A stretch of DNA of 14,533 nucleotides from Candidatus Woesearchaeota archaeon. GTDB lineage: Archaea; Nanobdellota; Nanobdellia; Nanobdellales; CAZNIQ01. The translations under genes were made by a program, and so were the position numbers. This document shows positions 1 to 13,361 of this stretch, piece after piece (position 1 is the first letter of the stretch; every line of letters begins with the position of its first letter). Location of the stretch: contig CAZNIQ010000017.1 in assembly GCA_964573185.1 (NCBI GenBank), positions 1 through 14,533 on the forward strand, in the 5' to 3' direction. The notes under the pieces are model-generated. The model did not search any database and had not been told where the DNA came from. It was given only the letters and a program-made list of their open reading frames with translations.

Positions 1-108
1 TTCAAAGAACTTAACATATTCCTTAATAATGAATACTAATAATCTCTCTTCAGAGGGACTTAAAATAAGAGGAATCAAGATGTTTCTATGATGGACGGCT
101 AATGTCAT
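1..108 (-). CDS. hypothetical protein; only the N-terminal 36 codons are in the window (runs off the left edge)
   Basis: Hand translation of the minus strand. ATG at 108-106 is preceded by an in-frame TAA (111-109). The frame then reads MTLAVHHRNILIPLILSPSEERLLVFIIKEYVKFFE and stays open to position 1. An ATTTAAAT element (130-137) is centred ~25 nt upstream, the same geometry as other starts in this window. Too short for the supplied ORF track. Confidence 0.4.
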   Translation of the reverse strand, partial: MTLAVHHRNILIPLILSPSEERLLVFIIKEYVKFFE

Positions 109-129
109 TTAAATTATATGTTTTTTGGA

Positions 130-137
130 ATTTAAAT
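130..137 (-). promoter_or_regulatory. candidate TATA box for the 1..108 gene (leaderless geometry); overlaps the last base of the D box of the upstream sRNA
   Basis: ATTTAAAT is centred ~25-26 nt upstream of the ATG at 108. This matches the archaeal TATA-to-TSS spacing if the mRNA is leaderless. Confidence 0.3.
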
Positions 138-245
138 CAGTAATCCGCCGTTTTCCACATCTTTTTTGTACCCCCGCTCCAGGAACGGGTATCATTTTTC
201 AACCCGTCGGCGGAGCGGGGTTCAGGAAGCCGTCCTGCTCATCAT
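137..245 (-). ncRNA. atypical/composite box C/D-type sRNA with a large structured insertion between D' and C'
   Basis: Minus-strand layout:
- C box aUGAUGA (245-239).
- 13-nt spacer GCAGGACGGCUUC (238-226).
- D' CUGA (225-222).
- 49-nt G+C-rich hairpin (220-172).
- UACAAAAAAG.
- Degenerate C' AUGUGGA (160-154).
- 13-nt spacer AAACGGCGGAUUA (153-141).
- D box CUGA (140-137).
The C box begins with the stop codon of the 242..829 gene. The C' box is weak (5/7 match to RUGAUGA) and the D'-C' distance is far above the usual 3-9 nt. Confidence 0.55.
172..220 (-). other. G+C-rich hairpin capped by a K-loop (putative L7Ae-binding module), embedded in the sRNA above
   Basis: Read on the minus strand:
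- 9-bp lower stem CCCCGCUCC/GGAGCGGGG.
- 3x3 internal loop GCC/CCU.
- 7-bp upper stem GACGGGU/ACCCGUU. Its G-U pair would be a C-A mismatch on the plus strand.
- 11-nt loop UGAAAAAUGAU.
The loop can form tandem sheared G-A/A-G pairs (G193-A199, A192-G200) plus a U191-U201 pair stacked on A190-U202. That is the C'/D'-type K-loop pattern. ACA follows 2 nt after the stem (169-167). Confidence 0.6.
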
Positions 246-829
246 TTACATATCTCTTCTATTTTTTCTTTAGATTTATAAAATAAAGAAGGTTTCTCCA
301 AAACTAAAGCACCACATTTTTTAATTATATATTTTATTACTTCTTCACTTCTTGAAAGAATCCTTGGATTTCCATAAACAAATTCTACAGCTTTTATGTA
401 AGGTAAACTCAGTTCTCTTGCTAAAATTTCTATTTTTCTTTTAATAGTATAAGGATTGTATGTTAATATTTTTGGAAATTCTAGGATTAAGTTTTTTATC
501 TCGTCTCTACTTTTATTAAAAATACTTTTCAACTCCTTTATTTTATTCTCTGTAGTAGAGGGATCATACGTTAACAAACTGGGAGCGGTAGCAACCGCTT
601 TTCTGCCAAACATATCAATTAAATATTCAATTCTGTGTTCTAATGTTGTCTGATCTAAAGTGAAAACTTCTGGATGTCTTAATAATTTAGGCAAATCTGA
701 AGGTAATATGTAATGGGCCAATAATTCTAATTTTTTACGTATATTTTCCTCTGTATAAGAATTTTTACTTTTCTTTTTCCTTAACTTTTGTATTATAATT
801 TTTATTAAATCTTCATACATCTGGTTCAA
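242..829 (-). CDS. helical-repeat protein resembling mTERF-type repeats (putative nucleic-acid-binding protein)
   Basis: 195-aa ORF from the track. It has five tandem ~25-36 aa units, each opening with xP(E/S/K/R)(V/L/I)(F/L)(T/S/Y)...: HPEVFTLD, APSLLTYD, FPKILTYN, NPRILSRS, KPSLFYKS (Pro at aa 53, 83, 119, 155, 180). Each is followed by an amphipathic I/L-rich segment (EHRIEYLIDMFG, ENKIKELKSIF, KRKIEILAREL, EVIKYIIKKCG). It overlaps taw1 by 17 nt. The stop UGA is fused to the C box. Confidence 0.7.
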   Translation of the reverse strand: MNQMYEDLIKIIIQKLRKKKSKNSYTEENIRKKLELLAHYILPSDLPKLLRHPEVFTLDQTTLEHRIEYLIDMFGRKAVATAPSLLTYDPSTTENKIKELKSIFNKSRDEIKNLILEFPKILTYNPYTIKRKIEILARELSLPYIKAVEFVYGNPRILSRSEEVIKYIIKKCGALVLEKPSLFYKSKEKIEEICK

Positions 830-1811
830 CAGATTTTATTATAGGATCTATTGGATTTTTAATATTTCTTAAAACTACAACCCTAGAAGGTTCATGCTCA
901 TCCATGTATTCAAATCCATCAAGATATTCCAAGAGTTTTAAGGCAAATTCTTTAACATCCTTATGTTCGGGTTGGTTTTCAGGTTTTAGTCTATACCTTG
1001 AATATCCTAAATACATATAAGCTTTAACCTCTACAAAATGCGGATTCATCCTTTCAATTATTTCAGCCCATTCATCTAAGTTCTTGTCATTTATTCCTTT
1101 AATTAATGTTATTCTTGCAACTCTTCTAGTTTTAGCTTTAGATAATAACCTTAGTGTTTTATTAAATCTTTCCCAAGCCTTAGGTATTACCGGTCTTGAA
1201 ACATACTCAAATATTTCTTGATTTGATCCTGTAAATGAAATATAGAATTGTGTTGGTAAAGCATTCTCTTCTATCAACCTTTCAACCATTTCAGGTACGG
1301 TACCATTTGAAACTATGAATATTGATTTAACCTGTTTCCAATTTTCTTTGATATACTTGATAGCTTCTGGCATCTTAGGATATAATAAAGGCTCTCCCAT
1401 TAAAGAGAAGGTTACATGAGACGGTTCTAAAGCTTCTTCAAGCATTTTCTTATCTACATTCGGATTTCCTTTAAAACCAATTAATAACTGCTTTCTCAAT
1501 TCTTTTAGTTTTTCTAACAATTCTCCGGGATCAGGGAACCATTCGGGGTGTTCTAATAATTCTAAAGTTTCTTTTTGAAACTCATGATTAGGTCTCCAAC
1601 AATAAATACATCTGTGGGTACACCAGAATAAAGCTAAAGAGATTTGCATACATCTATGAGTATCAATTCCGTAAAACTTATGTTTATAACAGAATCTTTT
1701 ATGTCTTAAGGCTTCTTTCGTCCAATGACATATCGCGACTCCAGCAGTCTTGTAAATACGATAACCAGCTTTCTCCATAGCTTCCTTAATTTTAGGATCT
1801 ATCTGAATCAC
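813..1811 (-). CDS. taw1: tRNA 4-demethylwyosine synthase (radical SAM; Taw1/TYW1)
   Basis: The CTHRCIYCW motif is the radical-SAM CxxxCxxC cluster. The upstream CYKHKFYGIDTHRCMQ block is typical of TYW1/Taw1. Length is 332 aa. The start is GTG at 1811 (the track shows it as M). Confidence 0.9.
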   Translation of the reverse strand: MIQIDPKIKEAMEKAGYRIYKTAGVAICHWTKEALRHKRFCYKHKFYGIDTHRCMQISLALFWCTHRCIYCWRPNHEFQKETLELLEHPEWFPDPGELLEKLKELRKQLLIGFKGNPNVDKKMLEEALEPSHVTFSLMGEPLLYPKMPEAIKYIKENWKQVKSIFIVSNGTVPEMVERLIEENALPTQFYISFTGSNQEIFEYVSRPVIPKAWERFNKTLRLLSKAKTRRVARITLIKGINDKNLDEWAEIIERMNPHFVEVKAYMYLGYSRYRLKPENQPEHKDVKEFALKLLEYLDGFEYMDEHEPSRVVVLRNIKNPIDPIIKSVEPDV

Positions 1812-1830
1812 GTTAAATTTTAGACTTTAA

Positions 1831-1839
1831 TTATTATAA
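1831..1839 (-). promoter_or_regulatory. candidate TATA box for taw1 (leaderless geometry) inside the 35-bp divergent intergenic region
   Basis: The minus strand reads TTATAATAA, centred ~24 nt upstream of the GTG at 1811. A mirror A/T element TTAAATTTTA (1813-1822) lies ~29 nt upstream of the pdaD ATG at 1847. Confidence 0.35.
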
Positions 1840-1846
1840 GGCTTTC

Positions 1847-2305
1847 ATGTTTCGTTACGTATTTTTTACAAAAGGTATAGGTATACATGAGGATCCTTTA
1901 GTTTCTTTTGAGCTAGCTTTAAGAGACGCTGGTATAGAATTTCTAAATTTAGTACCAGTTTCCTCTATTTTGCCACCCAATGTAAAGATAATTCCTAAAG
2001 AAGAGGGAATAAAACTTTTGAAACCAGGTCAAGTGGCTTATGTTGTTCTAGCTAAATATACTTCTAGTGAAGAGGGAAAAGAAATTTTTGCATCTATTGG
2101 TTATGCTATTCCAGAAGAGGAACATTATGGTTATTTCACAGAATATTATGGATATTGGGAAGAAAAACATAAAACGTATGCAGGTGAAATAGCAAAATAT
2201 CTTTTGGAATCTAAAGGAATTAAAGTAAAAGAATATGGAACTATATATGTAAAAGCAAAAGTAAGGAAATATACAACTGTTATTGCAGCTGCAGTGTTAA
2301 TCTAA
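1847..2305 (+). CDS. pdaD: pyruvoyl-dependent arginine decarboxylase proenzyme
   Basis: 152 aa. FTKGIG...SFELALRDAGIE..NLVPVSSILPP contains the conserved self-cleaving Ser-Ser site of the PvlArgDC family. Size and layout match archaeal PdaD. Confidence 0.9.
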   Translation: MFRYVFFTKGIGIHEDPLVSFELALRDAGIEFLNLVPVSSILPPNVKIIPKEEGIKLLKPGQVAYVVLAKYTSSEEGKEIFASIGYAIPEEEHYGYFTEYYGYWEEKHKTYAGEIAKYLLESKGIKVKEYGTIYVKAKVRKYTTVIAAAVLI

Positions 2306-2352
2306 TCAGCACTTCGTTGTATCTTCATTTTTCTGCTCACGGGCTTCATCAT
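2306..2352 (-). ncRNA. box C/D sRNA (double guide)
   Basis: Minus-strand layout:
- C box aUGAUGA (2352-2346).
- 12-nt guide AGCCCGUGAGCA (2345-2334).
- Degenerate D' GAAA (2333-2330).
- 2-nt linker AA.
- C' UGAAGA (2327-2322).
- 12-nt guide UACAACGAAGUG (2321-2310).
- D CUGA (2309-2306).
It exactly fills the convergent gap between the pdaD stop (2305) and the S2P stop (2349-2351), and that stop is the first UGA of the C box. Confidence 0.75.
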
Positions 2353-3392
2353 AAAGATAGAATTAGATTTATGATAACTAATAATAAAACTATCGTTGAA
2401 AGTATCTTATAGAGTCTTTTATTAACTAAAGTACTTAAGACAATACCACCATCTAAAATAAATATCGGTAATAGATTTGCGATCCCTATACCTAAGGATA
2501 TCACAAAAATCATTCTTAAAATTCTATAAAGATAATATAAAAAGTAATTTGTAATTTCATATTTCTGTTCGAGTAGGACGCCTAACCAAGGTTTTCCAGA
2601 TTTATTTCCTAAAATTACTGTAAAATTTCCTTTATCTGTAATAATAGTTATCTTTTCACCGGGTTTAAACCTATAGAAAATTTCCTTAAAATCCTGAATA
2701 GTTTTTATAGTATAATTATTTATTCCGATGATTGTTGCATTTATAGGTAATATTTCAGCTGGAGAACCTTTTGTAACATTTATTATCTTTAAACCTTCAA
2801 ATTTGATAAAATTAACAGGTAAAAAGAATAAGGGAAAAATTAATAGAGAAAGAAGAATGTTTCCAAAGGGACCCGCAAAAGCAATAGTTCTTATAATCTT
2901 TTTATCAGAGTTTTTAAGCTGATTCTCATCTGGTTCGGTATAAGCTGCAAGAAAAGGGCCTATCAGAGCTATCCCTAATCCTTTCAGCCTTATATTGTAA
3001 TACCTTATGAAGATTGCGTGAAAGATCTCGTGAACAAAGGCTGCAATAAATATAGCAACAACTGTTTCGATAAAGGGAAAATAATAACCTCCTATTCTAA
3101 TACCGGGTATAACTGGTAAAATTTTGAAAACAGTGTTTTTGTAAAAAATATAATCAACTATTCCTTTAATTACGTAAAAAACCGAGAAAAGCATACCTAA
3201 GAAACCAATAATATTAACTGCATAAGATAAATATTTTAGGAACTTTTTATGATTTTGAACAAATTTGTCTATAAACTCCCCTTTAGACAACTCTAAAAGA
3301 AAAATAAAGCCATATCTTTTTACTTTATGTTTATATTTGTAAAAAACTAGAAATATCAATAAATAGAATATTAGAGGAAGAAAAAATTCCAT
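2349..3392 (-). CDS. M50-family site-2 protease (RseP-like) with an internal PDZ domain
   Basis: HEIFHAI (HExxH) lies in a TM helix and NLLPIFILDGG (NxxPxxxLDG) is near the C-terminus. A PDZ-like segment (GLKIINVTKGSPAE...GEKITIITDKG) sits between them. The protein is polytopic and hydrophobic. The start abuts the L40e stop with 0 nt gap. Confidence 0.9.
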   Translation of the reverse strand: MEFFLPLIFYLLIFLVFYKYKHKVKRYGFIFLLELSKGEFIDKFVQNHKKFLKYLSYAVNIIGFLGMLFSVFYVIKGIVDYIFYKNTVFKILPVIPGIRIGGYYFPFIETVVAIFIAAFVHEIFHAIFIRYYNIRLKGLGIALIGPFLAAYTEPDENQLKNSDKKIIRTIAFAGPFGNILLSLLIFPLFFLPVNFIKFEGLKIINVTKGSPAEILPINATIIGINNYTIKTIQDFKEIFYRFKPGEKITIITDKGNFTVILGNKSGKPWLGVLLEQKYEITNYFLYYLYRILRMIFVISLGIGIANLLPIFILDGGIVLSTLVNKRLYKILSTIVLLLVIINLILSL

Positions 3393-3578
3393 TTATTTCT
3401 TCATGCCAGTTCCGATTTTCTTTGGTCTTAAATCTTTTGAACCACATTTTCTACACTTAACTTTTCCTGCTCTTACTTTTTCGGGATCTGCTCTTATCTT
3501 TGATTTACATTTATAGCATACAAATACTCTTTTAAATAGTCTAGCCTGAACTTCAGGGGGTATCCAAGTAGCTCCCAT
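3393..3578 (-). CDS. rpl40e: 50S ribosomal protein L40e
   Basis: 61 aa and basic. It has a CxxC...CxxC zinc ribbon (CYKCKSK...CRKCGSKDLRPKK) and the typical ARLFKR..C..C leader of L40e. Confidence 0.85.
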   Translation of the reverse strand: MGATWIPPEVQARLFKRVFVCYKCKSKIRADPEKVRAGKVKCRKCGSKDLRPKKIGTGMKK

Positions 3579-3594
3579 TTTTTATACTCTCCCG

Positions 3595-4137
3595 TTACTT
3601 TAAAGAATATTTCTCAAGATCTTTATATAACGGGCCTTGTGGTCTTAGAATGCTTTGCTTTAATTTAAACTCTTTTACTTCAAAATATCCAAAATCTATG
3701 TTCTTTAATTCATCAATAATTTCCAAGAATTTCTCTTTGTTAAGTACTTGCTTTATTCTTGCGATCGTGATATGTGGTACATATTCTTTTTCCAAGGGAA
3801 ATCCAAATTTTTTACATATAATATCCACCTTCCTTTGCAATTCTAACAACTTTTCTTTTCCTTCAGCAATGCCTAACCATAAAACTCTTATCCTATTAAA
3901 ATCTGGAAATGCCCCTAAACCTTTGACCCTTATTTTAAATTTCTCAAATTCGATAGATTTTAGAGCTTCCTGTATTTCCTTTACTTTTGGTGGCTGGAGT
4001 TCTCCTAAAAATTTTAATGTTATATGTAAATTTTCTTTTTCAACAAACTTCGCTCTAATAAATTTTATTTTATTATATATTTTAAATATTTCTTCTTTTA
4101 ATTCATCAGGCAAATCTATTGCTATGAATACTCTCAT
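3595..4137 (-). CDS. thpR: RNA 2',3'-cyclic phosphodiesterase / 2'-5' RNA ligase (LigT/ThpR, 2H family)
   Basis: 180 aa with the two 2H-family HxT motifs, HITLKF and HITIAR, at the expected spacing. Its ATG overlaps the upstream stop (ATGA at 4134-4137). Confidence 0.85.
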   Translation of the reverse strand: MRVFIAIDLPDELKEEIFKIYNKIKFIRAKFVEKENLHITLKFLGELQPPKVKEIQEALKSIEFEKFKIRVKGLGAFPDFNRIRVLWLGIAEGKEKLLELQRKVDIICKKFGFPLEKEYVPHITIARIKQVLNKEKFLEIIDELKNIDFGYFEVKEFKLKQSILRPQGPLYKDLEKYSLK

Positions 4138-4505
4138 TTTCCTTTCTTAAGAATTTTTCTTAAAAACTCTACGAACCATAATAGCGCTTTGTTCCTACCC
4201 TCTGCTTTCTTTAAAAGTTCTTTAATACTTTCTAACTCATTTTTAATTATATAAATGTTATTTTTGCTCTGATTTATAGATCGAATCATTTCTTGATAAA
4301 CTCTAAAATCAATAGTTGTATGTGTAGCAAGATATTTTACTAAAGCTTCTACATCGTTTACGAATTTTAATAATCTGTCATACCTATGTATTTCATTCTC
4401 TATTTCTTTTATTATCTTCTTTTCAAAGGAATCTATAAAATGTATTTCCTTTTCAATGTCTTCCAAATCAACGATAAGCCTTCTTAAAACTTCCCTAATA
4501 TCCAT
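4134..4505 (-). CDS. hypothetical coiled-coil protein
   Basis: 123-aa ORF that is K/E/I-rich with heptad-like periodicity. It is translationally coupled to thpR through an ATGA overlap. A strong TATA element lies ~25 nt upstream of its ATG. I recognise no family motif. Confidence 0.7.
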   Translation of the reverse strand: MDIREVLRRLIVDLEDIEKEIHFIDSFEKKIIKEIENEIHRYDRLLKFVNDVEALVKYLATHTTIDFRVYQEMIRSINQSKNNIYIIKNELESIKELLKKAEGRNKALLWFVEFLRKILKKGK

Positions 4506-4508
4506 AAA

Positions 4509-5546
4509 ATGGAATGGTTTAAGGATTATATAAATGCTGTTTACCCTGTTACGAAAGGAAAATATAGAATTCCTTTAAGCATTACAGAATTCCCTATAGA
4601 GAAAGAAAAATTTGAGGAAATAAAAGAAAAATTATCAATAATTTTTGAAAAGATAAAGGAAATAGTTTTCTATTTTTTAGATAAGAATCTAAAAGGATAT
4701 TTAATAGATGATTTTAGAAAAGAATTATACCTAAGAATTTATGAAAATTATAATTTTAAATTTAAAGGTGTTGTAAGATTTGATTTAATTAACTTTAAGT
4801 TAATAGAAATAAATGCAGATGCAGTTGAAGGTGTTATACAATTAGATATAACTGCTGGGTGGTTTACTAAGAATTTGGATTTTAAGGGAAAACCGCAGTA
4901 CAATACACCTTTATTTAAAGAATTATTTGATGGAAAAGCAATTATAATTTATCCGGAAGGCTATAAATTTGTTGATGAATATTATTTAGAGGCTAAAGAA
5001 TTGAATACAGAATATATTTCTGAAAAGGAGTTTTATAGTAAATTTGAAGAAATAAAAAGTAATTATGGTATCTTTAGAAGAGCAATTGATATTGATAAAG
5101 TTAAAAACATAGAACCATGGTTAGAAAAGCAAAATGTAAATGATATTTTATTTACAATAATTGGAAATAAAGCTAATCTAGCTTATTTATACGATTTCAT
5201 GGATGACGAATTAAAGTATGCTATTGATATTGTTGCGAAAACGTCTTTAAAACCAGAATTTAAAAGGTACGTTTCAAAACCTCCGTTTGGAACTTGGGGA
5301 AATGTAAAGTTTAACGAAAAAGTTGAAGGATGGGTTTATCAAGAATATATTGAAGTACCTCAAGCAAAAATAAAATATATTGATATAGACGATAAAATTA
5401 AAGAAGATGTTTTCTATTACGATTTTGATCCATATGCGTTTTATGATAATAAATTGAAGTTTGGTAATATATTGTTAAGGTTTTCAAAAAGTAAAATATT
5501 AAATGTGGCAAAAGGAGGTGGTGTAGGTTTTTGGACTATCTCTTAA
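4509..5546 (+). CDS. glutathionylspermidine-synthase-like (pre-ATP-grasp) amide ligase family protein, substrate unknown
   Basis: 345 aa. VRFDLINFKLIEINADAVEG resembles the R-x-D...K-l-l-E-x-N-a-D signature of the GspS/ATP-grasp family. The C-terminal part (VSKPPFGTWG...GWVYQEYIE...LLRFSKSKILNVAKGGG) fits the same fold family. Recognition is by eye only. Confidence 0.5.
   Translation: MEWFKDYINAVYPVTKGKYRIPLSITEFPIEKEKFEEIKEKLSIIFEKIKEIVFYFLDKNLKGYLIDDFRKELYLRIYENYNFKFKGVVRFDLINFKLIEINADAVEGVIQLDITAGWFTKNLDFKGKPQYNTPLFKELFDGKAIIIYPEGYKFVDEYYLEAKELNTEYISEKEFYSKFEEIKSNYGIFRRAIDIDKVKNIEPWLEKQNVNDILFTIIGNKANLAYLYDFMDDELKYAIDIVAKTSLKPEFKRYVSKPPFGTWGNVKFNEKVEGWVYQEYIEVPQAKIKYIDIDDKIKEDVFYYDFDPYAFYDNKLKFGNILLRFSKSKILNVAKGGGVGFWTIS
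4526..4534 (-). promoter_or_regulatory. candidate TATA box for the 4134..4505 gene, embedded in codons 6-9 of the divergent 4509..5546 gene
   Basis: The minus strand reads TTTATATAA, centred ~25 nt upstream of the ATG at 4505. The two divergent start codons (4505 and 4509) are separated by only 3 bp, so promoter elements must lie inside the opposing CDS. Confidence 0.4.
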
Positions 5547-6408
5547 GTTCATATGTTTGTAATAGCAGAAGATAGCTCATATTAAATAAAGGTAAAATAG
5601 TTATAATCATTAATTTTAAGATCGGGAAAAGTTGAACATTTATTAACATTGCGAAGAGGGTTATCAAAGTTATTAAAAATAAGGGAAAGACTATAAAAAC
5701 ACCAGTATAAATTGTTAGAAGAGTCGTAAGCTTATCTGTAAATTCTTTCATCTTTAATTTGAATTCAAATAATGCGTTTTTCGCTTCCTGTTCTAAAAAG
5801 AATTTTAAATCTCCTCCAGATCTTATAGTTGATACAAAGGAATATAAAAATTCTGCAAATTTCCTTGAAGGTGTTGTATTTGCAGCTTTAATTAAAGCAG
5901 TGATCAGGTCCAAACCCATTACTTTTGTTAAGTAAGTAATATAATTGGCTTCTTCCTTAATTCCAGGAAATTCTTTTCTTTTTGCTAGTATTTCAAATAT
6001 CTTCTGGGGAGGTAAACCTGATTTTGCTAGAGCGGACATATATAATAAAGCGAAAGGTAAGTTATTCTCTATTGAAACTCTTAAATCTCCTGCTTTTAGA
6101 GAGGGATAGATTCTGAAATAGAGATATACTGATAATGAGAAAACACTTGCTACTATAACAGCTACTAACCACTCTACCCAATGCCAAAAACCAATAGAAA
6201 TTCTCATATAGATTAAAACAACTAAAAATGAAATTATAAAAACTAAGAAAGTCGTTAAGTACATCATTGAAACGTAACTTTCAAATAAAACCGGTATTCT
6301 GGCCTTTACATATTCTCTATAAAAATCTTTGTATTTTTCTCTATTTTTAAGTATGTAATCTAGGAAAAGTCTATTTGCAAGTAATTTGTACTTCTCAAGA
6401 AGATTCAT
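5536..6408 (-). CDS. type II secretion F-domain membrane platform protein (half-size FlaJ/ArlJ/TadC-like)
   Basis: 290 aa. TM helices flank a cytoplasmic helical domain (NNLPFALLYMSALAKSGLPPQKIFEIL...STIRSGGDL), as in T2SF/FlaJ/TadC. It overlaps the FlaI-like gene by 14 nt. It carries one T2SF unit rather than the two seen in full-length FlaJ. Confidence 0.8.
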   Translation of the reverse strand: MNLLEKYKLLANRLFLDYILKNREKYKDFYREYVKARIPVLFESYVSMMYLTTFLVFIISFLVVLIYMRISIGFWHWVEWLVAVIVASVFSLSVYLYFRIYPSLKAGDLRVSIENNLPFALLYMSALAKSGLPPQKIFEILAKRKEFPGIKEEANYITYLTKVMGLDLITALIKAANTTPSRKFAEFLYSFVSTIRSGGDLKFFLEQEAKNALFEFKLKMKEFTDKLTTLLTIYTGVFIVFPLFLITLITLFAMLINVQLFPILKLMIITILPLFNMSYLLLLQTYELKR

Positions 6409-7951
6409 ATATTTTTTCTAAGACCTTCTCTTTATCTACATAAAATTCATTTACTATTCTTGTAAACTCTCTATAATCTCTTATCTTATTTCTTACCATC
6501 CATTGTAACACTTCCTTTCTTTCTTTTATATCTTCTCTCACATCTCTTAATACAAACCCTCTTTTCCTTGCCAACTTCTTAAACAATTCTTTTATCTCCG
6601 ATTCTACAAAGGTATCGTTTTCAGGATCCCAAACAAAAGCTTTGTTCGTTTCAACAGTGCTATATTTATAATTTACTTTTGTAACTTCTGTAACTTCCTT
6701 AATTCTTCTAGCTGAAGGAGAAATTTCTTTAGCATGGACTATAAAAATAAAGAGATCTAGATGTTCTATTAGTTCTATAGGTAAGTTTATTGGAGGTGTA
6801 GTTAATCTCCTAACAACGGATGTCACGGAATCTGCGTGAATAGTTCCCATGCAAGCATGTCCAGAAGCCATTCCTTGAAATAAAACGTAAGCTTCTTTTC
6901 CTCTCACTTCTCCAACTATAACGTAGTCTGGCCTTTGTCTAAAGGATTCCTTTAATAAATCGAACATCGTAACCTCACCATACCTTTTACCAGTTTCATC
7001 TGGGGGCCCAAAACCTTCCCTAGTTACTGTAGGTATCCAATTCTCATGATATAATTGAATTTCTCTTGTATCTTCAATGGAAATTACCTTTGCTTCCTTT
7101 GGAATAAACATAGCAATAGCATTTAATAATGTAGTCTTTCCAGCACCGGTCTCACCTCCTATTAAGATATTAGCTTTATGTTCTACCGCCCACCAGAGGT
7201 AAGCAGCAATGTCTACATTCATAGTACCATTTAGTATTAAGTCAACTGGTGTCCAGGGTTCCTTCCTAAACTTTCTTATAGTAAATGTCGGACCCCTTGT
7301 TGTGATATCAGAAGTATAAGTTGCGTTAACTCTTGAACCGTCAGGTAGAATACCATCCAAGTAGGGTTCTGCATAAGATATATATCTTCCAGCTTTTTGC
7401 GCAAGTTTTATTACGAATTTTTCTAATTCCTCATTTGAATTAAAAATAATATTAGTCTTTAGGGATCCGTATTTTGAATGATAAACGAATATCGGAATTC
7501 CAACACCATCACAAGAGATATCTTCAATAAAAGGATCATGCATTAAGGGTTCTATTTTACCTAAACCTATAGTATCTCTTATAATGTAATAGACGAGCTT
7601 TAGATATTCCGATTTCTTAGGATGGTAATTTAATTCTTTCAAAATTTGATTAATCTTTTCTACAATGTATTTTTCAGCATCTTTTCTATCTAAGTTTACA
7701 ACTTCAATATCTACTAGGTCGTATAATCTATCTTTTACTATTTCTAAGATCTCTTTTTCTTTCTCATTTAGCGGGGGCTCTATTACGTAATATCTTAGTT
7801 CTTCAGAATGGGGGTCCCAAAAGATATAAGCATACGCAAAACCGTGAATTAGAGGATATATTACTTTCAGCTTAAAAAGATCTTCTTTTTTCTTAATTGT
7901 AGGTAAATTTGGAATTTTCGGTATAGATTCAAATAGTCTGAATATATCCAT
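6395..7951 (-). CDS. type II/IV secretion-family ATPase (FlaI/ArlI/PilB-like)
   Basis: 518 aa. Walker A is GGETGAGKTT, the Asp/Walker B box is RPDYVIVGEVRG and the His box is GHACMGTIHA. The N-terminal domain is typical of archaeal FlaI-type ATPases. Confidence 0.9.
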   Translation of the reverse strand: MDIFRLFESIPKIPNLPTIKKKEDLFKLKVIYPLIHGFAYAYIFWDPHSEELRYYVIEPPLNEKEKEILEIVKDRLYDLVDIEVVNLDRKDAEKYIVEKINQILKELNYHPKKSEYLKLVYYIIRDTIGLGKIEPLMHDPFIEDISCDGVGIPIFVYHSKYGSLKTNIIFNSNEELEKFVIKLAQKAGRYISYAEPYLDGILPDGSRVNATYTSDITTRGPTFTIRKFRKEPWTPVDLILNGTMNVDIAAYLWWAVEHKANILIGGETGAGKTTLLNAIAMFIPKEAKVISIEDTREIQLYHENWIPTVTREGFGPPDETGKRYGEVTMFDLLKESFRQRPDYVIVGEVRGKEAYVLFQGMASGHACMGTIHADSVTSVVRRLTTPPINLPIELIEHLDLFIFIVHAKEISPSARRIKEVTEVTKVNYKYSTVETNKAFVWDPENDTFVESEIKELFKKLARKRGFVLRDVREDIKERKEVLQWMVRNKIRDYREFTRIVNEFYVDKEKVLEKIYESS

Positions 7952-8115
7952 TATATATTTTTAGGAATGATAGTATAAAAAGTTCCATTTACTACTTCAA
8001 AGGAAATACTTCTAAAATTATAACTAAAGATAATAGTTTTTGCTAGAAAAATAAAAGAAATTATCAAAGTGAAATAAATTATATAGGTAAGGATAGTCTC
8101 AATAGTTACTCTCAT
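7951..8115 (-). CDS. small membrane protein (54 aa) with a pilin-like N-terminal hydrophobic helix
   Basis: Hand translation: MRVTIETILTYIIYFTLIISFIFLAKTIIFSYNFRSISFEVVNGTFYTIIPKNI. Its ATG overlaps the upstream stop (ATGA, 8112-8115) and its TAA overlaps the FlaI-like ATG (TAATG, 7949-7953). The ORF therefore exactly fills the apparent 160-nt gap in the operon. Below the length cutoff of the ORF track. Confidence 0.55.
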   Translation of the reverse strand: MRVTIETILTYIIYFTLIISFIFLAKTIIFSYNFRSISFEVVNGTFYTIIPKNI

Positions 8116-8597
8116 CTAATTTCTATTCCATTTATTGTTTTTACAAACAGCAACCTGCATCTTTTACAATCTATATTGCAACTTCTGCTTACATTTGTTT
8201 TATAAATAAAAGCAATTCTTCCTACACAGCCATAATACAAATTAGGATAAACTTCTGTAAAAGTATTGTTACTAAAATAAGCTATTTTCCCATTGTATAT
8301 TACTGTTTTATTGTTTAAATCTAATTTTCCTTCACAATTTTTGCTTAGAATAAATAGAATTCCGTTATTTAAGCATATTATCTGTACATCTGATAATTCA
8401 TAATAAATTGAAGAATTGTAATAGAGATGAGAAAGGAAATTTAAAGTATTTGCCAAATCATAGATATCGTTCATCCTTTCCTTTAAAAGAAATTCCGCTC
8501 TTATCTTTGGGGAGAGATAATAGAAGAAAGTGAAGGAAGAAAAAACTATTGTTAAAATTATTAATGTTGTTATTACAAGATCTATAAACTGTTCCAC
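8112..8597 (-). CDS. hypothetical secreted/membrane-anchored protein with an N-terminal hydrophobic helix and a Cys-rich C-terminal part (possible pilin-like or accessory subunit)
   Basis: 161 aa. The N-terminus is MEQFIDLVITTLIILTIVFSSFTFFYYL, followed by an N/Y/S-rich domain containing 6 Cys. The start is GTG. It lies directly upstream of, and is coupled to, the FlaI-like operon. There is no clear class III signal-peptide cleavage motif. Confidence 0.65.
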   Translation of the reverse strand: MEQFIDLVITTLIILTIVFSSFTFFYYLSPKIRAEFLLKERMNDIYDLANTLNFLSHLYYNSSIYYELSDVQIICLNNGILFILSKNCEGKLDLNNKTVIYNGKIAYFSNNTFTEVYPNLYYGCVGRIAFIYKTNVSRSCNIDCKRCRLLFVKTINGIEIR

Positions 8598-8614
8598 AAA
8601 TTAAAAAAGAAAAA

Positions 8615-8980
8615 TTATTTGAGGTGTTCTAAGGCGTTTACCAAAGCGGCAACTAATCCCAAGATCGCTGCTAACAAATATCCTAATGCTACAAGATATT
8701 GGGCATATACTTCAGATATTCCTGCTACTTTGAATGGTGTTACTAACAATGTTGAAGCTGCAGCAAATACTGCAAACAAAGCTGCTGCTTGTAACCACCT
8801 TTTAGCTTTTTCGGATAAACCTAATCTCTCTGCTAAGGGAACTAGTGCTGAAAATCCAAATGCTACAGTTAATCCCAACAGAAATGGTCCTAATACTGGT
8901 AGTGAATACAACCCTAAAGCGTTTGCTACACCTGCTGCAACTAACAAAGCTATCAAATCCAAGTTCTCTCTCCAGGCCAT
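8615..8980 (-). CDS. small Ala/Leu/Gly-rich polytopic membrane protein, unknown function
   Basis: 121 aa with about four hydrophobic segments separated by AERLGLSEKAKRW and TPFKVAG. It is co-oriented with the pilus-like operon and sits 17 nt upstream of it. The antisense ORF 8619..8990 is low-complexity N/A/T-rich, which looks like a GCN-codon mirror artefact. Confidence 0.6.
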   Translation of the reverse strand: MAWRENLDLIALLVAAGVANALGLYSLPVLGPFLLGLTVAFGFSALVPLAERLGLSEKAKRWLQAAALFAVFAAASTLLVTPFKVAGISEVYAQYLVALGYLLAAILGLVAALVNALEHLK

Positions 8981-9039
8981 TAAATTATAGTTTACAATTT
9001 TGTTATTAACAATTTATAACTACTGATTTATAATATAGT

Positions 9040-11052
9040 TTAAAAAGGAGGTTTTAATAGTTCCTTTAATTTAGTTGGAAGTTCCTTAATATCTATCCTT
9101 ATCTGTTCCATAGTATCTCTAAATCTTATAGTTACTGTATTGTCTTCTAAAGTCTGATAATCTATTGTAATACAATATGGAGTTCCTATTTCATCCTGTC
9201 TCCTATATCTTTTACCAATTGATCCTGAATCATCATAATAAACTCTAAAGCCTTTTTTTCTCAATAATTCATATGCTTCTTTCGCCTTTTCAACCAACTC
9301 CTTTTTGTTTGAAAGTAATGGAAACACAGCAACTTCTATAGGAGCCAAATATTCTGGTAACTTTAATACTATTCTTATCTCGTTGTTTACTTTTTCTTCT
9401 GTATAAGCTAGATATAGTAAAGCAAAGATATTTCTGTCCACACCAAAGGAAAGCTCTAATTCGACTGGTAATATTCTTCTTCCATCTGGTTTGGTTATTA
9501 TAAATCCTAAATCTTCTGAAAGAATTAAATGATTGTATAAATCGTAACCAACAAGTACTTTTTCCTTATTCTCTAATACTTTTTCCAAAGCTTTCCTAAC
9601 TTTTTTACTTTTTATTTTATCCAAATCTTCTTTCTTCAATTCTATAGCTCTAAAATGTATGCCTCCAACTTCTACCCATCCTAGTTCATCTAAATATACT
9701 TCTACATCAAAGTGGTATTTATTGTAAAAGGATCTTTCTTCTTCAGAAAGCTCAAAGAATCTGAATCTTTCTTTTGGTATTTTTAATACATTTAAATAAA
9801 ATTCTTGAACCTTATATAAGAAGTATAAATAGAATTTCGGATAACCTCTTCTTTCTAATTCTTCTAAGGATTTTTCAAAGAAATCTTTTCCCTTTTCCCT
9901 GTCTTCAACCAAAAGAACATTTATTTTTTTGTCTTTAACTTTTTCAAATTCTTTATCAAAGGGATTGTCCTCTAAATCGAAGAAGATCTGTAGTTCTGCT
10001 TGAGTAAATTCTCTTAATCTTAATAAAGCTTGTCTTGGAGAGATCTCATTCCTAAAAGCTTTTCCAATAACGAATAGACCTAAAGGTAATCTAGCTCTTT
10101 GAAAGTTTATTTCTTTTGGAAAATTAACATAGGGTCCTTGTGCAGTTTCTGGTCTTAAGAACATTCTGTTCTCCAACACATCTTTATAAGATTTGTAGAT
10201 ATTATAAGCCAGCTCTTCAAAATCTATATTAGTGTTAATTTCCTTACATTTATCTAATATTTTTTCAAATTCTTTATCCAAATCTACGTTTTCATACTTG
10301 TCAATATTTTTTTCAACAATTTCTTTTGGATCCCTATCCTTTATATAAAAATAAGCTTTTCTTCCCAGAACATCATATTTTAATACTTTTGTAAAATCTT
10401 CATTGAAAATATAAACAATAAAATCTTTTTCTAATAAATATAATTCTTCTTTTTCAAATACTTCTTTTAACAAAGTAATAAATTCTAATCCGTCTTCTGT
10501 TTCAAAATTGTATTTTATTTCTTTTAGCTTCTTAAGATATTTTTCTTGAGTTTCAAATATTTTTTTCAGCTCATTTAAATATAGGAAAAGATTTCCAGAT
10601 TCTACCCCTACAAATATAGGAAACATTAAATTAAATAATTTAACTTTAGATAATTTTGACCCACATTCCGGACAAACAATTTTTCCTTCTTCAAAGATTC
10701 TATTCATTTCTTCTATCGTGAGACTCTCAGCCTTAATTCCTAGTTTTTCCTCTATAAGTTTATCAGCTCTAAACCTATGACCGTTGGGACATTCTGTAAC
10801 AGGATCTACGAATAACTCCAAATGTTTAGAAGCTCTGAATACGTTTTCATGCATAATTTCACAAGGTTCTATTTCCCAAACGTTATCAAATAAGGAATAG
10901 AAGAATTTTCTAAATAGATTTTCAAGCTTTCTTTTCAAAGCAGTTCCTAGAGAACCGTAATCATAAAATCCAGCTTTACCGCCATAGATTCCACAAGACT
11001 TATAAAAGAAACCCCTCCTTTCTGCAAGATTTACTACTTTCTCAAATTTCAT
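9040..11052 (-). CDS. glyS: glycine--tRNA ligase (class II, archaeal/eukaryotic alpha2 type) with lineage-specific insertions
   Basis: Motifs seen: RRGFFYKSCGIYGG, FNLMF, LRPETAQG, FRNEISPR, FTQAE, ELSFGVDR and an anticodon-binding C-terminus (IGKRYRRQDEIGTPYCITID). At 670 aa it is, from recollection, about 90-100 aa longer than typical archaeal GlyRS. Confidence 0.95.
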   Translation of the reverse strand: MKFEKVVNLAERRGFFYKSCGIYGGKAGFYDYGSLGTALKRKLENLFRKFFYSLFDNVWEIEPCEIMHENVFRASKHLELFVDPVTECPNGHRFRADKLIEEKLGIKAESLTIEEMNRIFEEGKIVCPECGSKLSKVKLFNLMFPIFVGVESGNLFLYLNELKKIFETQEKYLKKLKEIKYNFETEDGLEFITLLKEVFEKEELYLLEKDFIVYIFNEDFTKVLKYDVLGRKAYFYIKDRDPKEIVEKNIDKYENVDLDKEFEKILDKCKEINTNIDFEELAYNIYKSYKDVLENRMFLRPETAQGPYVNFPKEINFQRARLPLGLFVIGKAFRNEISPRQALLRLREFTQAELQIFFDLEDNPFDKEFEKVKDKKINVLLVEDREKGKDFFEKSLEELERRGYPKFYLYFLYKVQEFYLNVLKIPKERFRFFELSEEERSFYNKYHFDVEVYLDELGWVEVGGIHFRAIELKKEDLDKIKSKKVRKALEKVLENKEKVLVGYDLYNHLILSEDLGFIITKPDGRRILPVELELSFGVDRNIFALLYLAYTEEKVNNEIRIVLKLPEYLAPIEVAVFPLLSNKKELVEKAKEAYELLRKKGFRVYYDDSGSIGKRYRRQDEIGTPYCITIDYQTLEDNTVTIRFRDTMEQIRIDIKELPTKLKELLKPPF

Positions 11053-11078
11053 AAGCTTTCAATGTAAGTACTCTTAAA

Positions 11079-11774
11079 ATGTTTATTGTAACGGAAGATG
11101 TTAAGGAATATCGTAAAAAAGCTTTAGAGTATGTTACAGAAGAAGATATAGTCTTAGAAGTTGGATGTGCTGATGGCGTTACTTCTTATCTTTTATCTAA
11201 AAAAGCCAAAAAAGTGGTAGGGATAGATAAATCTAAAGAGGCTATTGAAAGAGCTTTAAAACGTTGGAAAAAAGAAAATCTAGAATTTTATCTAATGGAT
11301 GGGTTTGATATTAGAAGAATTTTAAGAAAATTTGGGAAGGTTTTTACAGTAATTTTAATAGATATTTCAGGATCCAGAGATCCTTCAGATGTATTAAGAC
11401 TAGCAATTTCTTATGAAAAAGCTTTTAATCCAAGATTAATTATCATAAAGAACAGACCTCTTAAAAAATTTGTTGAAAAGGTTATTTATAATGACTTTAA
11501 AATAAAAGATATTAATGAATTGATGTATTACTTAAAAAGAGAATGGGAAAAGTTAAATATTGTTTTTAAAGAAGTGAAGCTTGTTAAAGAAGAATATAAA
11601 GATTTATGGGAAATGGTCTTATCTTATTACAATGATTTAAAATATTTTTATGAGAAAAGAGATTATGTGAAAGTTTTTGAGTTGGAAAATTATATATGGG
11701 GTCTTCTAGATGCTTTAGCAAATTTAAAAGCTTTAGAAATCCCTGAAAAAATTAAAAGATGGTTTAAAATATAG
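11079..11774 (+). CDS. SAM-dependent methyltransferase with an extra C-terminal helical domain, substrate unknown
   Basis: VLEVGCADGVTS is SAM-binding motif I. VVGIDKS (motif II) and ILIDISG follow. The C-terminal ~80 aa (YYNDLKYFYEKRDYVKVFELENYIWGLLDALANL) resembles a small archaeal helical domain (DUF357-like, from memory). Confidence 0.7.
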   Translation: MFIVTEDVKEYRKKALEYVTEEDIVLEVGCADGVTSYLLSKKAKKVVGIDKSKEAIERALKRWKKENLEFYLMDGFDIRRILRKFGKVFTVILIDISGSRDPSDVLRLAISYEKAFNPRLIIIKNRPLKKFVEKVIYNDFKIKDINELMYYLKREWEKLNIVFKEVKLVKEEYKDLWEMVLSYYNDLKYFYEKRDYVKVFELENYIWGLLDALANLKALEIPEKIKRWFKI

Positions 11775-11779
11775 TTCTA

Positions 11780-11827
11780 ATGATGACTTTGCCGCGTCCT
11801 GATTATGATGAAACCGATGGGAACTGA
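11780..11827 (+). ncRNA. box C/D sRNA (double guide, canonical)
   Basis: Layout:
- C box aUGAUGA (11780-11786).
- 12-nt guide CUUUGCCGCGUC (11787-11798).
- D' CUGA (11799-11802).
- Linker UUA.
- C' UGAUGA (11806-11811).
- 12-nt guide AACCGAUGGGAA (11812-11823).
- D CUGA (11824-11827).
All four boxes are perfect consensus and the spacing is the archaeal 12/3/12. The guides are G+C-rich islands in AT-rich DNA. Confidence 0.85.
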
Positions 11828-11834
11828 ATTAAAA
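11827..11834 (+). promoter_or_regulatory. candidate TATA-like element for rnj; overlaps the last base of the sRNA D box
   Basis: AATTAAAA is centred ~24-25 nt upstream of the ATG at 11855. The stronger-looking TATATAAT at 11841-11848 is only ~11 nt from the ATG, too close to serve a start at 11855. The conserved RNase J N-terminus supports the 11855 start. Confidence 0.3.
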
Positions 11835-11854
11835 ACTTTCTATATAATTTTTCT

Positions 11855-13186
11855 ATGGAAATAGAGATCAAAGCTTTAGGAGGGTATGAAGAAGTTGGAA
11901 GAAATATGACTGCTCTGAGAATTGATGATGAAGTGATAATTTTAGATATGGGATTGCATGTAGATAGAATAGTTTCATATGGAGAAAGAGATGCCTTGCA
12001 AAAATTGCCTTTAGAAAAATTATATGAGATAGAAGCATTACCAGATGATAGATTGATAGAAAATTGGAGGGACAAAGTTAAAGGCATTTTCATTTCTCAT
12101 GGTCATTTAGATCATGTTGCAGGAGCACCCTTCTTAGCTTCAAAATACAAAGCCCCCATTTATGCTACACCATTTACAATCGAAGTTCTAAAATTTTTAG
12201 CAAAAGATAATGGAGTTACTTTACCTAATCCTCTAAAAGCTGTTCCGCCTAATTCAAGAGTTAGAGTTTCTGATAAAATCGAAGTAGAATTTGTGTACGT
12301 GACGCATTCTATTCCTCATAGCACAATAATTGTTGTTCATACACCAGAAGGGGCAATTGTATATGCTTGCGATTATAAATGGGATAATCATCCTTTAATA
12401 GGTCAAACATCGAATGTAAAAAGGCTCAAAGAAATTGCAAGGGAAGAGGATATTTTAGCTTTAATTGTTGAAAGCACTAGAGTTGATGAAGAATCGAAAA
12501 CACCATCAGAAATAATTGCAAGATATATGTTAGAAGATGTGTTAAAGTCTTTAGAGGATACAAAAGCTATAATTGTTACAACCTTCTCTTCTCATATCGC
12601 AAGATTAAAATCCATATTTGAATTGGCTTGGGAAATAGATAGAATACCTGTTTTTCTTGGTAGGTCTTTAGCAAAGTATATTGGAGTTGCAGAGAAATTA
12701 GGTTTTATTAATTTTACAGAAGAGACTGATGTTCTAGGAAATCCAAAAGATATTGCTCAGAAGTTAAAAGAAGTACAATTGCAAAAAGACAAATATCTTT
12801 TAGTTGTCACGGGACATCAGGGAGAACCAGGTTCGGTTTTAGATAGAATGTCAAGAGAGCAATTGCCATGGAAATGGGATAAAGAAGATGTTGTTATTTT
12901 CTCTTCATTTGTAATTCCATATCCAACTAATATTGCAAACAGGCAAATAATTGAGCAAAGATTAAAACATAAAGGAGTACATATTATAAAAGATGTGCAT
13001 GTCTCGGGGCACGCTAGAAAAGAGGATCATAGAAGATTGTTAAGAATCTTAAAACCAAAATTAATAATTCCAATGCATGGGGAAATGCATAAAAGAGCAG
13101 CGTATGTTGAGTTAGCCATAGAAGAAGGGTATGAATTCGGAAAAGATGTTGTTTTATTACAAAATGGTCAAAGCATTAAAATATGA
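11855..13186 (+). CDS. rnj: ribonuclease J (archaeal beta-CASP metallo-beta-lactamase 5'-3' exoribonuclease)
   Basis: 443 aa. The N-terminus reads IKALGGYEEVGRNMT. The HGHLDH metallo-beta-lactamase motif is present. Beta-CASP-type downstream motifs are present, including a C-terminal VSGHA...PMHGE. The size fits archaeal RNase J, which lacks the bacterial C-terminal domain. Confidence 0.9.
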   Translation: MEIEIKALGGYEEVGRNMTALRIDDEVIILDMGLHVDRIVSYGERDALQKLPLEKLYEIEALPDDRLIENWRDKVKGIFISHGHLDHVAGAPFLASKYKAPIYATPFTIEVLKFLAKDNGVTLPNPLKAVPPNSRVRVSDKIEVEFVYVTHSIPHSTIIVVHTPEGAIVYACDYKWDNHPLIGQTSNVKRLKEIAREEDILALIVESTRVDEESKTPSEIIARYMLEDVLKSLEDTKAIIVTTFSSHIARLKSIFELAWEIDRIPVFLGRSLAKYIGVAEKLGFINFTEETDVLGNPKDIAQKLKEVQLQKDKYLLVVTGHQGEPGSVLDRMSREQLPWKWDKEDVVIFSSFVIPYPTNIANRQIIEQRLKHKGVHIIKDVHVSGHARKEDHRRLLRILKPKLIIPMHGEMHKRAAYVELAIEEGYEFGKDVVLLQNGQSIKI

Positions 13187-13231
13187 TGAGAGCTTCTACT
13201 CCTGACATATGATGAATGGAGGGGTTTCTGA
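13183..13231 (+). ncRNA. box C/D sRNA (double guide, canonical), with its C box fused to the rnj stop codon
   Basis: Layout:
- C box aUGAUGA (13183-13189). The first UGA (13184-13186) is the rnj stop.
- 12-nt guide GAGCUUCUACUC (13190-13201).
- D' CUGA (13202-13205).
- Linker CAUA.
- C' UGAUGA (13210-13215).
- 12-nt guide AUGGAGGGGUUU (13216-13227).
- D CUGA (13228-13231). Confidence 0.85.
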
Positions 13232-13361
13232 AGAATTAATAGAAAAAATTAAGGAAGAAGTAAGAAAAGTAGTAAAGGAAGAATTAGAAAAATTTGAAAG
13301 AAGATTATTAAATGAAATAATTTATATTTTATTTGGAGAAGAGGAAGAAGAATACTATTAA
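13209..13361 (+). CDS. candidate small protein (50 aa), helical with an acidic EEEEEYY C-terminus
   Basis: Hand translation: MMNGGVSEELIEKIKEEVRKVVKEELEKFERRLLNEIIYILFGEEEEEYY*. It is the only open frame across a 150-nt stretch that is otherwise unexplained in a genome with almost no non-coding DNA. Codon and strand composition match neighbouring genes. The start codons lie inside the C' box of the preceding sRNA. Below the ORF-track cutoff. Confidence 0.4.
   Translation: MMNGGVSEELIEKIKEEVRKVVKEELEKFERRLLNEIIYILFGEEEEEYY

Follow-up and report, generated by a model that had tools for sequence, protein, structure and literature searches.

The window, that is, the whole stretch of DNA that was analysed (14,533 nucleotides, nt), comprises positions 1 to 14,533, the full length, of the metagenomic contig CAZNIQ010000017.1 (assembly GCA_964573185.1), from an archaeon catalogued as Candidatus Woesearchaeota. 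Near its start, on the minus strand, an open reading frame (ORF, 242-829) with a match to the Pfam family mTERF (E = 2e-10) is followed by an element of 109 nt that probably encodes a single composite RNA. Its outer boxes and guides are those of an archaeal box C/D small RNA (sRNA), and between boxes D' and C' is lodged a hairpin that resembles a box H/ACA guide and is capped by a putative kink-loop (K-loop). The element is the sole stretch of at least 57.5% G+C in a window of 29.6% G+C, and the RNA as a whole folds more stably than shuffled sequences (z = -3.1). An earlier sequence-only reading had described a normal C/D sRNA with a hairpin inserted between D' and C', and every part it listed lies on the minus strand between 245 and 137 (Table 1).

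Table 1. Parts of the composite RNA and related features. Coordinates are those of the window, except for the last two rows, which refer to locus L004 of the related genome GCA_054017035.1.
Feature	Position	Strand	Sequence or remark
Box C	245-239	-	AUGAUGA; overlaps stop codon of the upstream mTERF-like ORF
D' guide (spacer), 13 nt	238-226	-	GCAGGACGGCUUC
Box D', intact	225-222	-	CUGA; kept in L004
Lone unpaired A	221	-	
Hairpin insert, 49 nt	220-172	-	
Lower stem, 9 base pairs (bp)	220-212/180-172	-	CCCCGCUCC/GGAGCGGGG
Internal loop	211-209/183-181	-	GCC/CCU
Upper stem, 7 bp	208-202/190-184	-	GACGGGU/ACCCGUU
Apical loop	201-191	-	UGAAAAAUGAU; as K-loop, U-GA-AAAAU-GA-U
Spacer	171-170	-	GU
ACA	169-167	-	2 nt past lower stem
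Linker	166-161	-	AAAAAG
C' candidate, degenerate	160-154	-	AUGUGGA (UGUGGA 159-154); position orthologous to C' of L004
C' alternative, shifted	162-157	-	AGAUGU; GAUG core retained; 16 nt from box D
D guide (spacer), 13 nt	153-141	-	AAACGGCGGAUUA
Box D	140-137	-	CUGA, then UUU
TATA/box A-like element	275..282	-	TTTATAAA; about 26-30 nt upstream of box C, within the last codons of the upstream ORF
Inverted partial copy of sRNA leader, box C and 3' part of D' guide	78..106	+	AGATGTTTCTATGATGGACGGCTAATG; downstream of the sRNA, within a strain-specific insertion of 70 nt
RNA-Y	L004 8172..8056	-	H/ACA K-loop hairpin, ACA, AA, canonical C/D sRNA (tandem)
RNA-X	L004 3104..2985	-	C/D sRNA with nested hairpin of about 75 nt bearing a kink-turn (K-turn)

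The ends of the RNA conform to an archaeal C/D sRNA, with a box C of the form RUGAUGA near the 5' end and a CUGA box D near the 3' end, and a terminal stem of 3 bp could form between AAA (248-246) and UUU (136-134). The middle departs from it: the usual D'-C' linker of 3-9 nt between intact internal boxes is replaced by one of 61 nt, or of about 10-12 nt if the hairpin is counted as closed. At the site orthologous to C', aligned by eye to GUGAUGA of L004, UGUGGA lacks the A of the GA pair, and the alternative AGAUGU is displaced by 3 nt; the GA of box C' is present in all 26 sRNAs of the published Nanoarchaeum equitans set. Both spacers measure 13 nt, as the sequence-only reading had noted, against 12 and 13 nt in the ortholog at L004 and 12 nt in two textbook C/D sRNAs of the window (11780-11831 and 13183-13235, plus strand). 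A third sRNA of ordinary size lies at about 13425-13370 on the minus strand and has an unusual C box, GUGAAGA; two of these three ordinary sRNAs start at or just past the stop codon of the upstream gene. In a search of Rfam, proposed with that reading as a check, the window RNA reached the gathering score of no family, and at E <= 10 it gave weak matches to Pyrococcus sR32 and sR3 over the half from C to D' only (E 3-6) and nothing for the hairpin.

The mTERF-like ORF belongs to one of only three clusters of its kind among 5.8 billion proteins, and by means of these clusters the orthologous loci of the sRNA were located. In L004, where TYW1 is about 75% identical to that of the window, the syntenic sRNA reads GUGAUGA-GCAGGACGGCAC-CUGA-AA-GUGAUGA-UAACGGCGGAUUG-CUGA. 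It is an ordinary C/D sRNA of 54 nt that has both guide cores of the window RNA, a C' that is intact and a linker of 2 nt, and lacks the hairpin. The cores, GCAGGACGGC in the D' guide (complementary to GCCGUCCUGC) and AACGGCGGAUU in the D guide, are unchanged at 21 of 21 nt, while the alignable flanks are 76% identical (chance expectation 0.003). N. equitans sRNA6, a canonical sRNA of 52 nt, carries the D-guide core GGCGGAUU as well, in the same register. Because both the L004 ortholog and sRNA6 are short, parsimony makes the canonical form ancestral and the hairpin a gain. With orthology to a recognised C/D sRNA established by synteny, we are highly confident that the window element is a C/D sRNA carrying an insertion, which is what the sequence-only reading had surmised.

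Two further loci, L002 and L003, bear the 109-nt RNA with 0 and 1 substitutions, respectively. The three copies differ by a single substitution, found in L003 (U170 to C), which adjoins the ACA and leaves it intact. Window, L002 and L003 represent one strain-level lineage, so that the identity of the copies is not evidence of selection. Genomes and metagenomes scanned for the combination of box C, guide and D' gave 35 and at least 120 stretches, almost all of which were chance matches in G+C-rich bacteria; the only real additional copy was L084, on the same contig as L003, and no further variants were found. Other loci linked to TYW1 or RIO1 (L244-L250) showed no synteny and held no ortholog of the window RNA or of RNA-X. 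At L002 910-1287 a called ORF of 125 amino acids begins at the ATG of the K-loop and runs through the 3' half of the sRNA; the N-terminal extension of this ORF is probably an annotation artefact, and the same frame has a stop in the window. Upstream of the RNA, the block AAACCTTCTTTATTTTATAAATC is common to the window, L002 and L004 though the remainder of the ORF diverges. N. equitans promoters place box A (TTTAAA) 26 nt ahead of the start site (PMC3491384). The composite RNA is probably transcribed from a promoter of its own, which would lie within the 3'-terminal part of the upstream gene.

Together the two guides specify a single unbroken sequence, 5'-(U)AAUCCGCCGUCCUG-3', on which they overlap, and a target in 23S ribosomal RNA (rRNA) can be proposed from a published prediction and a calibration of numbering. 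For N. equitans sRNA6 the target predicted with PLEXY is 23S-2393, AAAUCmCGCCG. By way of this predicted target of a matching D guide, the search of rRNA suggested with the sequence-only reading had an indirect success. N. equitans numbering is offset from that of Escherichia coli by +93 at E. coli 1910-1935 and by +79 at G2251 and 2490/2509, which places the sRNA6 site at the E. coli 23S hairpin 2296-2322 (UAAUCCUG...CAGGAGGUUA). The 3' strand of this hairpin, CAGGAGGUUA, resembles the concatenated guides (CAGGAC..GGCGGAUUA). Both guides are accordingly predicted to pair with one strand of the hairpin, the target being 5'-UAAUCCGCCGUCCUG-3' at about E. coli 2296-2310. In so doing they would imitate one strand of the helix, invade it and direct 2'-O-methylation of two cytidines on the other strand; the candidate sites are C4 of the 15-mer together with C7 (window RNA) or C8 (L004). 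We take the E. coli hairpin 2296-2322 to be helix H84. A C/D guide is expected to be complementary to rRNA or tRNA over at least 9 nt, with a Watson-Crick pair at N+5; when the guides were compared approximately with E. coli rRNA, no close match appeared and the result was uninformative. A literature search with the guide sequences returned irrelevant matches only. Two other targets were considered and rejected. The 15-nt joint target can be parsed neatly as positions 58-72 of a transfer RNA (tRNA), but no tRNA was present in any fetched locus and none of 82 exact matches (viral contigs) lay in a tRNA; a tRNA target is also disfavoured by the match of the D guide to N. equitans sRNA6, for which a site in 23S rRNA is predicted. 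The region of E. coli C2394 in H88 was the best by sequence (10 of 15) and is excluded by the calibration of N. equitans and E. coli numbering.

The inserted hairpin folds as the sequence-only reading had described, with a minimum free energy (MFE) of -32.4 kcal/mol against -17.2 +/- 2.6 kcal/mol for shuffled sequences (z = -5.8; 0 of 200 shuffles as good). The 3x3 internal loop of that description holds for the sequence (GCC/CCU) but not for the MFE fold, in which the first G and the last U form a G.U pair and leave a 2x2 loop, CC/CC. The apical loop follows the K-loop pattern of RNA-Y (GA-UCUAU-GA) and of the snoR9 consensus (GGA-AuCGU-GAA), in keeping with the earlier proposal; as judged from its sequence it would stack layers U.U, G.A and A.G above a loop of 5 nt, and it is a putative binding site for L7Ae. 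The same loop may also be read as a motif of the C'/D' type, UUGA...UGAUA (UUGA-AAAA-UGAUA). A bulge-helix-bulge splicing motif was ruled out, as the two 3-nt loops face each other and the 4-bp stagger is missing.

Published rules for archaeal H/ACA guides allow this geometry to be compared in detail. The descriptor of Muller et al. (PMC2377435) sets a minimum of 7 bp for helix H1 and asks for 5-11 nt on each pocket strand and for 14-15 nt between ANA and target. Toffano-Nioche et al. (PMC4652768) found that productive archaeal folds and all full ribonucleoprotein (RNP) crystal structures have a GA stem of exactly 10 layers, that the lower stem has 9 bp in most productive folds, and that ACA and GA stem are 14-15 nt apart in all. 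Their productive classes, with Pyrococcus values, are 10/5/9 and 10/6/9, and trade-offs between pocket and lower stem are permitted if the 14-15-nt distance is kept (PMC4652768). Counted by their convention from the closing pair to the second G:A, the GA stem of the window hairpin has 10 layers (7 Watson-Crick or G.U pairs plus U.U, G.A and A.G); its lower stem has 9 bp, and 14 nt (3+9+2) separate the ACA from the pair that closes the GA stem. With these three values the frame that positions L7Ae, Nop10 and the PUA domain of Cbf5 is intact. The part that reads the substrate is not, for the pocket has 3+3 nt where each strand should have at least 5. The H/ACA-like geometry claimed by the sequence-only reading is therefore borne out, as is its caveat that the pocket is too small.

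Two further RNAs encoded at L004 bear on this likeness. RNA-Y is a tandem arrangement that has a TATA box of its own and ends in a U5 terminator. Its hairpin is a bona fide H/ACA one (pocket 7/6, lower stem of 7 bp), with the same GA stem (10) and ACA distance (14) as the window hairpin. RNA-Y aligns to the full length of the Rfam snoR9 model at 30.6 bits (E = 1.3e-5), which is below the gathering score of 90. The first guide of RNA-Y matches the D' guide of N. equitans sRNA12 at 11 of 12 nt. RNA-X, with the layout GUGAUGA AAACCCAGGACU CUGA GG [~75-nt hairpin] UAUCU AUGAUGA GCGGUGAUCUG CUGA, is predicted to be a second nested composite, its hairpin standing between D' and an intact C' and enclosing a pocket of 7/5 to 10/9. 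The arms of the RNA-X and window hairpins have the motifs CCCCG.., CC.CCGA, CCCGUUCCU and GGGGUA in common; the similarity score of the 3' arm was reached by 3 of 5000 shuffles and that of the 5' arm by 71 of 5000. The D' guides of the two RNAs share CAGGAC, which points RNA-X to the same rRNA strand.

The hairpin also resembles the predicted target of its own guides. With the upper stem-loop removed it reads CCCCGCUCCGCCG^UCCUGGAGCGGGG, and 12 consecutive nt of this sequence (UCCGCCG^UCCUG) occur in the joint target; none of 20000 structure-preserving shuffles reached 12, and the best, 11, was reached once. The complement of the pocket, AGG-AC-GGC, is present in the D' guide of the RNA itself and, presumably, in the rRNA strand opposite the methylated one. 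Pairing with it leaves two nt unpaired, as in the complex of an H/ACA RNA with its substrate, and neither of them is a U. The duplex of D guide and hairpin (-14.5 kcal/mol) was equalled by 39 of 2000 shuffles, whereas that of D' guide and hairpin is ordinary (864 of 2000). The mimicry could represent a clamp on the displaced rRNA strand, a parking place in cis for a guide, or a trace of how the sequence arose. As an explanation of the hairpin as a whole, a target mimic acting in cis, in which pairing between the loop region and either the D' guide (AGG-AC-GGC) or the D guide (7 bp, UCCGCCG) would have an autoinhibitory or protective effect, is improbable. It would account for the 12-nt identity and for the stability of the D-guide duplex, but the mimic is mostly locked in the stems of 9 and 7 bp with 3+3 nt free, the D'-guide duplex is no better than those of shuffles, RNA-X and RNA-Y show no comparable mimicry by eye, and pairing with the opposite rRNA strand or evolutionary origin explains the resemblance equally well.

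A true bifunctional guide, which pseudouridylates the strand opposite the methylated one, would require a larger pocket. Such a pocket (CCGCC/CCUGG, formally 10/5/9) arises in an alternative, breathing register if the lower stem opens its two uppermost C-G pairs and is extended below by A.G and A-U layers; GA stem and 14-nt distance are retained, and the exchange is of the kind that the published rules allow. This pocket complements xCAGG-NN-GGCGG, the predicted 3' strand of the same rRNA hairpin, and RNA-Y, in tandem, and RNA-X, with its pocket of 7/5 to 10/9, show that the clade couples the two types of guide. The register is energetically costly, however, as it opens two G-C pairs in a very stable stem, and the predicted partner AGG-AC-GGC has no U in its unpaired dinucleotide. 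We give this explanation little credence.

The reading we prefer, at a probability of roughly one half, is that the RNA performs ordinary C/D methylation and bears an accessory arm for L7Ae, and possibly for Cbf5-Nop10; it would not be a conventional pseudouridylation guide, because the pocket has 3+3 nt and AGG-AC-GGC offers no U at the catalytic position. As the ortholog of an ordinary double-guide C/D sRNA, the RNA would use its guides to direct Nop5-fibrillarin to two cytidines of 23S rRNA. The 49-nt hairpin, inserted in the D'-C' linker, would grow from the loop of the internal C'/D' motif, so that L7Ae could occupy the terminal K-turn as well as the apical K-loop, and Cbf5-Nop10 might dock on the hairpin together with the ACA. 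Given the degenerate C', the arm may stabilise the RNP or assist its assembly, and its target-like loop may hold either the displaced opposite rRNA strand or the idle D' guide of the RNA itself. With respect to the parts of this proposal, the evidence leans towards the hairpin being an H/ACA-derived module, and binding of Cbf5 by it is suggested only tentatively, at somewhat less than even odds.

Several observations weigh against the preferred reading. Degeneracy of C' may impair the internal C/D RNP and hence methylation guided by D'. The pocket of 3+3 nt (2x2 in the MFE fold) compares with 5-11 nt per strand required by the descriptor (PMC2377435), and no H/ACA or C/D family of Rfam matches the hairpin even at E <= 10. 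The ACA may be there by chance, for its linker is rich in A and an ACA at 14-15 nt turned up in 8.5% of shuffled linkers. RNA-X, the closest relative of the hairpin, has no ANA box. Finally, all three hairpin-bearing copies come from one strain-level lineage (TYW1 and PdaD 100% identical) and provide no evidence of covariation. Small pocket, missing ANA box in RNA-X and chance frequency of the ACA also speak for a plainer account, in which the hairpin is a mere extra arm for L7Ae or a surrogate for C'/D', its K-loop replacing the damaged C' or protecting the RNA at high temperature, with no part for Cbf5. The apical motif can be read as a C'/D'-type K-loop, C' is more degenerate than in any of the 26 N. 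equitans sRNAs, and a C/D-like intron RNA of tRNA-Met in N. equitans has a plain G+C hairpin. We nonetheless regard this account as unlikely: the K-loop is 17 layers from the D' guide, too distant to place Nop5-fibrillarin in the manner of C'/D', and a GA stem of 10, a lower stem of 9 and an ACA at 14 nt coincide, the first and last equal to those of RNA-Y, which would hardly happen by accident.

A bolder reading is that nested guides resembling the small Cajal body RNAs (scaRNAs) exist in Nanoarchaeota-like archaea. A C/D RNP and a Cbf5-Nop10-L7Ae module, assembled on one RNA of about 110 nt, would then work on both strands of the same 23S helix, the C/D guides methylating one strand while a miniature H/ACA pocket grips the other, displaced strand as a non-catalytic clamp or chaperone, or for non-canonical pseudouridylation. 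This we put forward as speculation and consider quite unlikely.

The surroundings of the sRNA gene bear signs of rearrangement. Between the window and L003 the mTERF-like ORF is hypervariable, with 60-77% DNA identity between flanks that are 100% identical; identity is complete over TYW1 and PdaD (832-2331) and resumes about 55 nt before the C box. A 70-nt insertion at about 62-131 of the window is absent from L002 and L003, and the inverted copy of the 5' end of the sRNA that it contains suggests local rearrangement around the gene. Mobility and rearrangement of C/D sRNA genes have been described in N. equitans and Pyrobaculum. The simplest history would be that a hairpin module of the RNA-X type was recombined between related sRNA genes into a canonical sRNA and then compacted. 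Origin by simple inverted duplication of the sRNA was rejected, since in the hairpin a central K-loop of sense orientation stands between flanks of antisense appearance. These signs of rearrangement, along with the degenerate C' and the confinement of the form to one lineage, would also fit a decaying gene disrupted by insertion; alternatively the transcript may be a precursor cut into an H/ACA-like hairpin RNA and C/D fragments, for which the two forms of Pyrococcus Pab21 seen on Northern blots offer a parallel. We hold either version to be very unlikely. Boxes C and D, both needed for the terminal K-turn, flank the hairpin, and cleavage would leave fragments with an incomplete C/D motif; apart from C', every box is intact, as are both guides and all motifs of the hairpin; and RNA-X has the same nested design with an intact C'.

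As to the host, the named relatives of the TYW1 of the window are the Nanoarchaeota Nanopusillus, Nanoclepta and Nanobdella, at 52-57% identity. Split tRNA halves with G+C-rich complementary tails have been reported for N. equitans, and G+C-rich islands that resemble such halves by eye occur in related loci (L004 8552-8628 and 8970-9052; L245 351-440; L246 6065-6150), with apparent anticodons CUG, GUG and CUC. The two in L004 bear a complementary tail and leader of 12 nt (CCCCGCCCCCGC / GCGGGGGCGGGG), and ARAGORN found no intact tRNA at the islands of L004, L245 and L246. The TYW1 relatives and the split-tRNA-like halves together point to an uncultured, A+T-rich, Nanoarchaeota-like archaeon, presumably thermophilic. 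Genes for sRNAs are dense in this clade. At the TYW1-linked locus L250, two canonical C/D sRNAs flank an intergenic region (1365-1500), one convergent on TYW1 and the other overlapping the start of a diphthamide synthase gene. At L245 3869-3957 a G+C-rich stretch (peak 78% G+C) is preceded by a TATA-like element and followed by an A/T run, and starts with AAACGGCGGCC, which resembles the D guide; it gave no convincing fold and no Rfam match.

The RNA could be of use in several respects. Being a minimal natural substrate, it lends itself to the question of whether Cbf5 is still recruited by an H/ACA frame that has no usable pocket, and it tests how far a C/D RNP tolerates a large internal K-loop insertion combined with a degenerate C'. 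Three states in closely related genomes, namely the canonical ortholog, RNA-X with its full pocket and the compact window RNA, could show the gain and loss of a module. The target-mimic loop also gives a hint of a new mode of action on rRNA: as ribosomes are assembled in a hyperthermophile of reduced genome, a guide RNA may attend to both strands of an rRNA helix.

The window RNA may be compared with several known systems, of which canonical archaeal C/D sRNAs are the most immediate. With N. equitans sRNA6 and the L004 ortholog it shares boxes C, D' and D, guides and predicted target region; like them, it reaches into the 3' end of a gene and probably has its own promoter. These forms, however, measure 50-60 nt and have a linker of 2-3 nt and an intact C', whereas the window RNA measures 109 nt and has a C' that is degenerate or shifted. 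RNA-X, which came to light in this analysis and is itself undescribed, is likewise a C/D sRNA with a G+C-rich hairpin bearing a K-motif between D' and C'; it differs in its intact C', in a K-turn with a capping stem instead of a K-loop, in its large pocket, in the missing ANA box and in its D guide. The single-hairpin H/ACA RNAs Pf9 and Pab91 (10/5/9 and 10/6/9) show the same K-loop, 10-layer GA stem, 9-bp lower stem and ACA at 14 nt, but have pocket strands of 5-8 nt, and their ACA follows directly on the stem, in contrast to the 3+3-nt pocket and 2-nt spacer of the window hairpin. A target of such guides presents an unpaired 5'-UN-3' flanked by sequence complementary to both pocket strands, and the one complement identified for the window hairpin, AGG-AC-GGC, offers no unpaired U.

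Pyrococcus Pab21/snoR9 (RF00065) combines H/ACA and C/D motifs in tandem on one archaeal transcript, and Pab21 is known with and without its C/D part. The likeness to the window RNA lies in the association of an H/ACA hairpin (K-loop, ACA) with a C/D sRNA on one transcript, and RNA-Y follows snoR9 closely, both having the order hairpin-ACA-(2-6 nt)-AUGAUGA-like box-guide-CUGA. In snoR9 the hairpin stands 5' of box C and has a pocket of full size, whereas that of the window RNA is nested between D' and C'; in line with this, the window RNA did not match the snoR9 covariance model at E <= 10. The suggestion of the sequence-only reading that the architecture belongs to no described class is thus correct in part: an archaeal transcript with H/ACA and C/D motifs was already known, and the nested topology alone appears to be undescribed, no account of an archaeal nested C/D-H/ACA composite having been found in the literature.

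The nested topology itself has its closest counterpart in eukaryotes. In scaRNAs such as U85 the C and D boxes lie at the ends, the H/ACA part is placed inside the C/D unit, and both sets of proteins are recruited. The window RNA has the same topology with a single K-loop hairpin and a vestigial pocket; scaRNAs lack K-loops and have two hairpins, H, ACA and CAB boxes, and pockets that function, and no evolutionary link connects the two. Composite C/D-H/ACA scaRNAs of eukaryotes are mentioned in PMC1865073. Nested composite guides have been believed to occur only in eukaryotes, the one composite known from archaea being the tandem Pab21/snoR9, and an archaeal nested form, if the present reading is true, would represent an independent origin.

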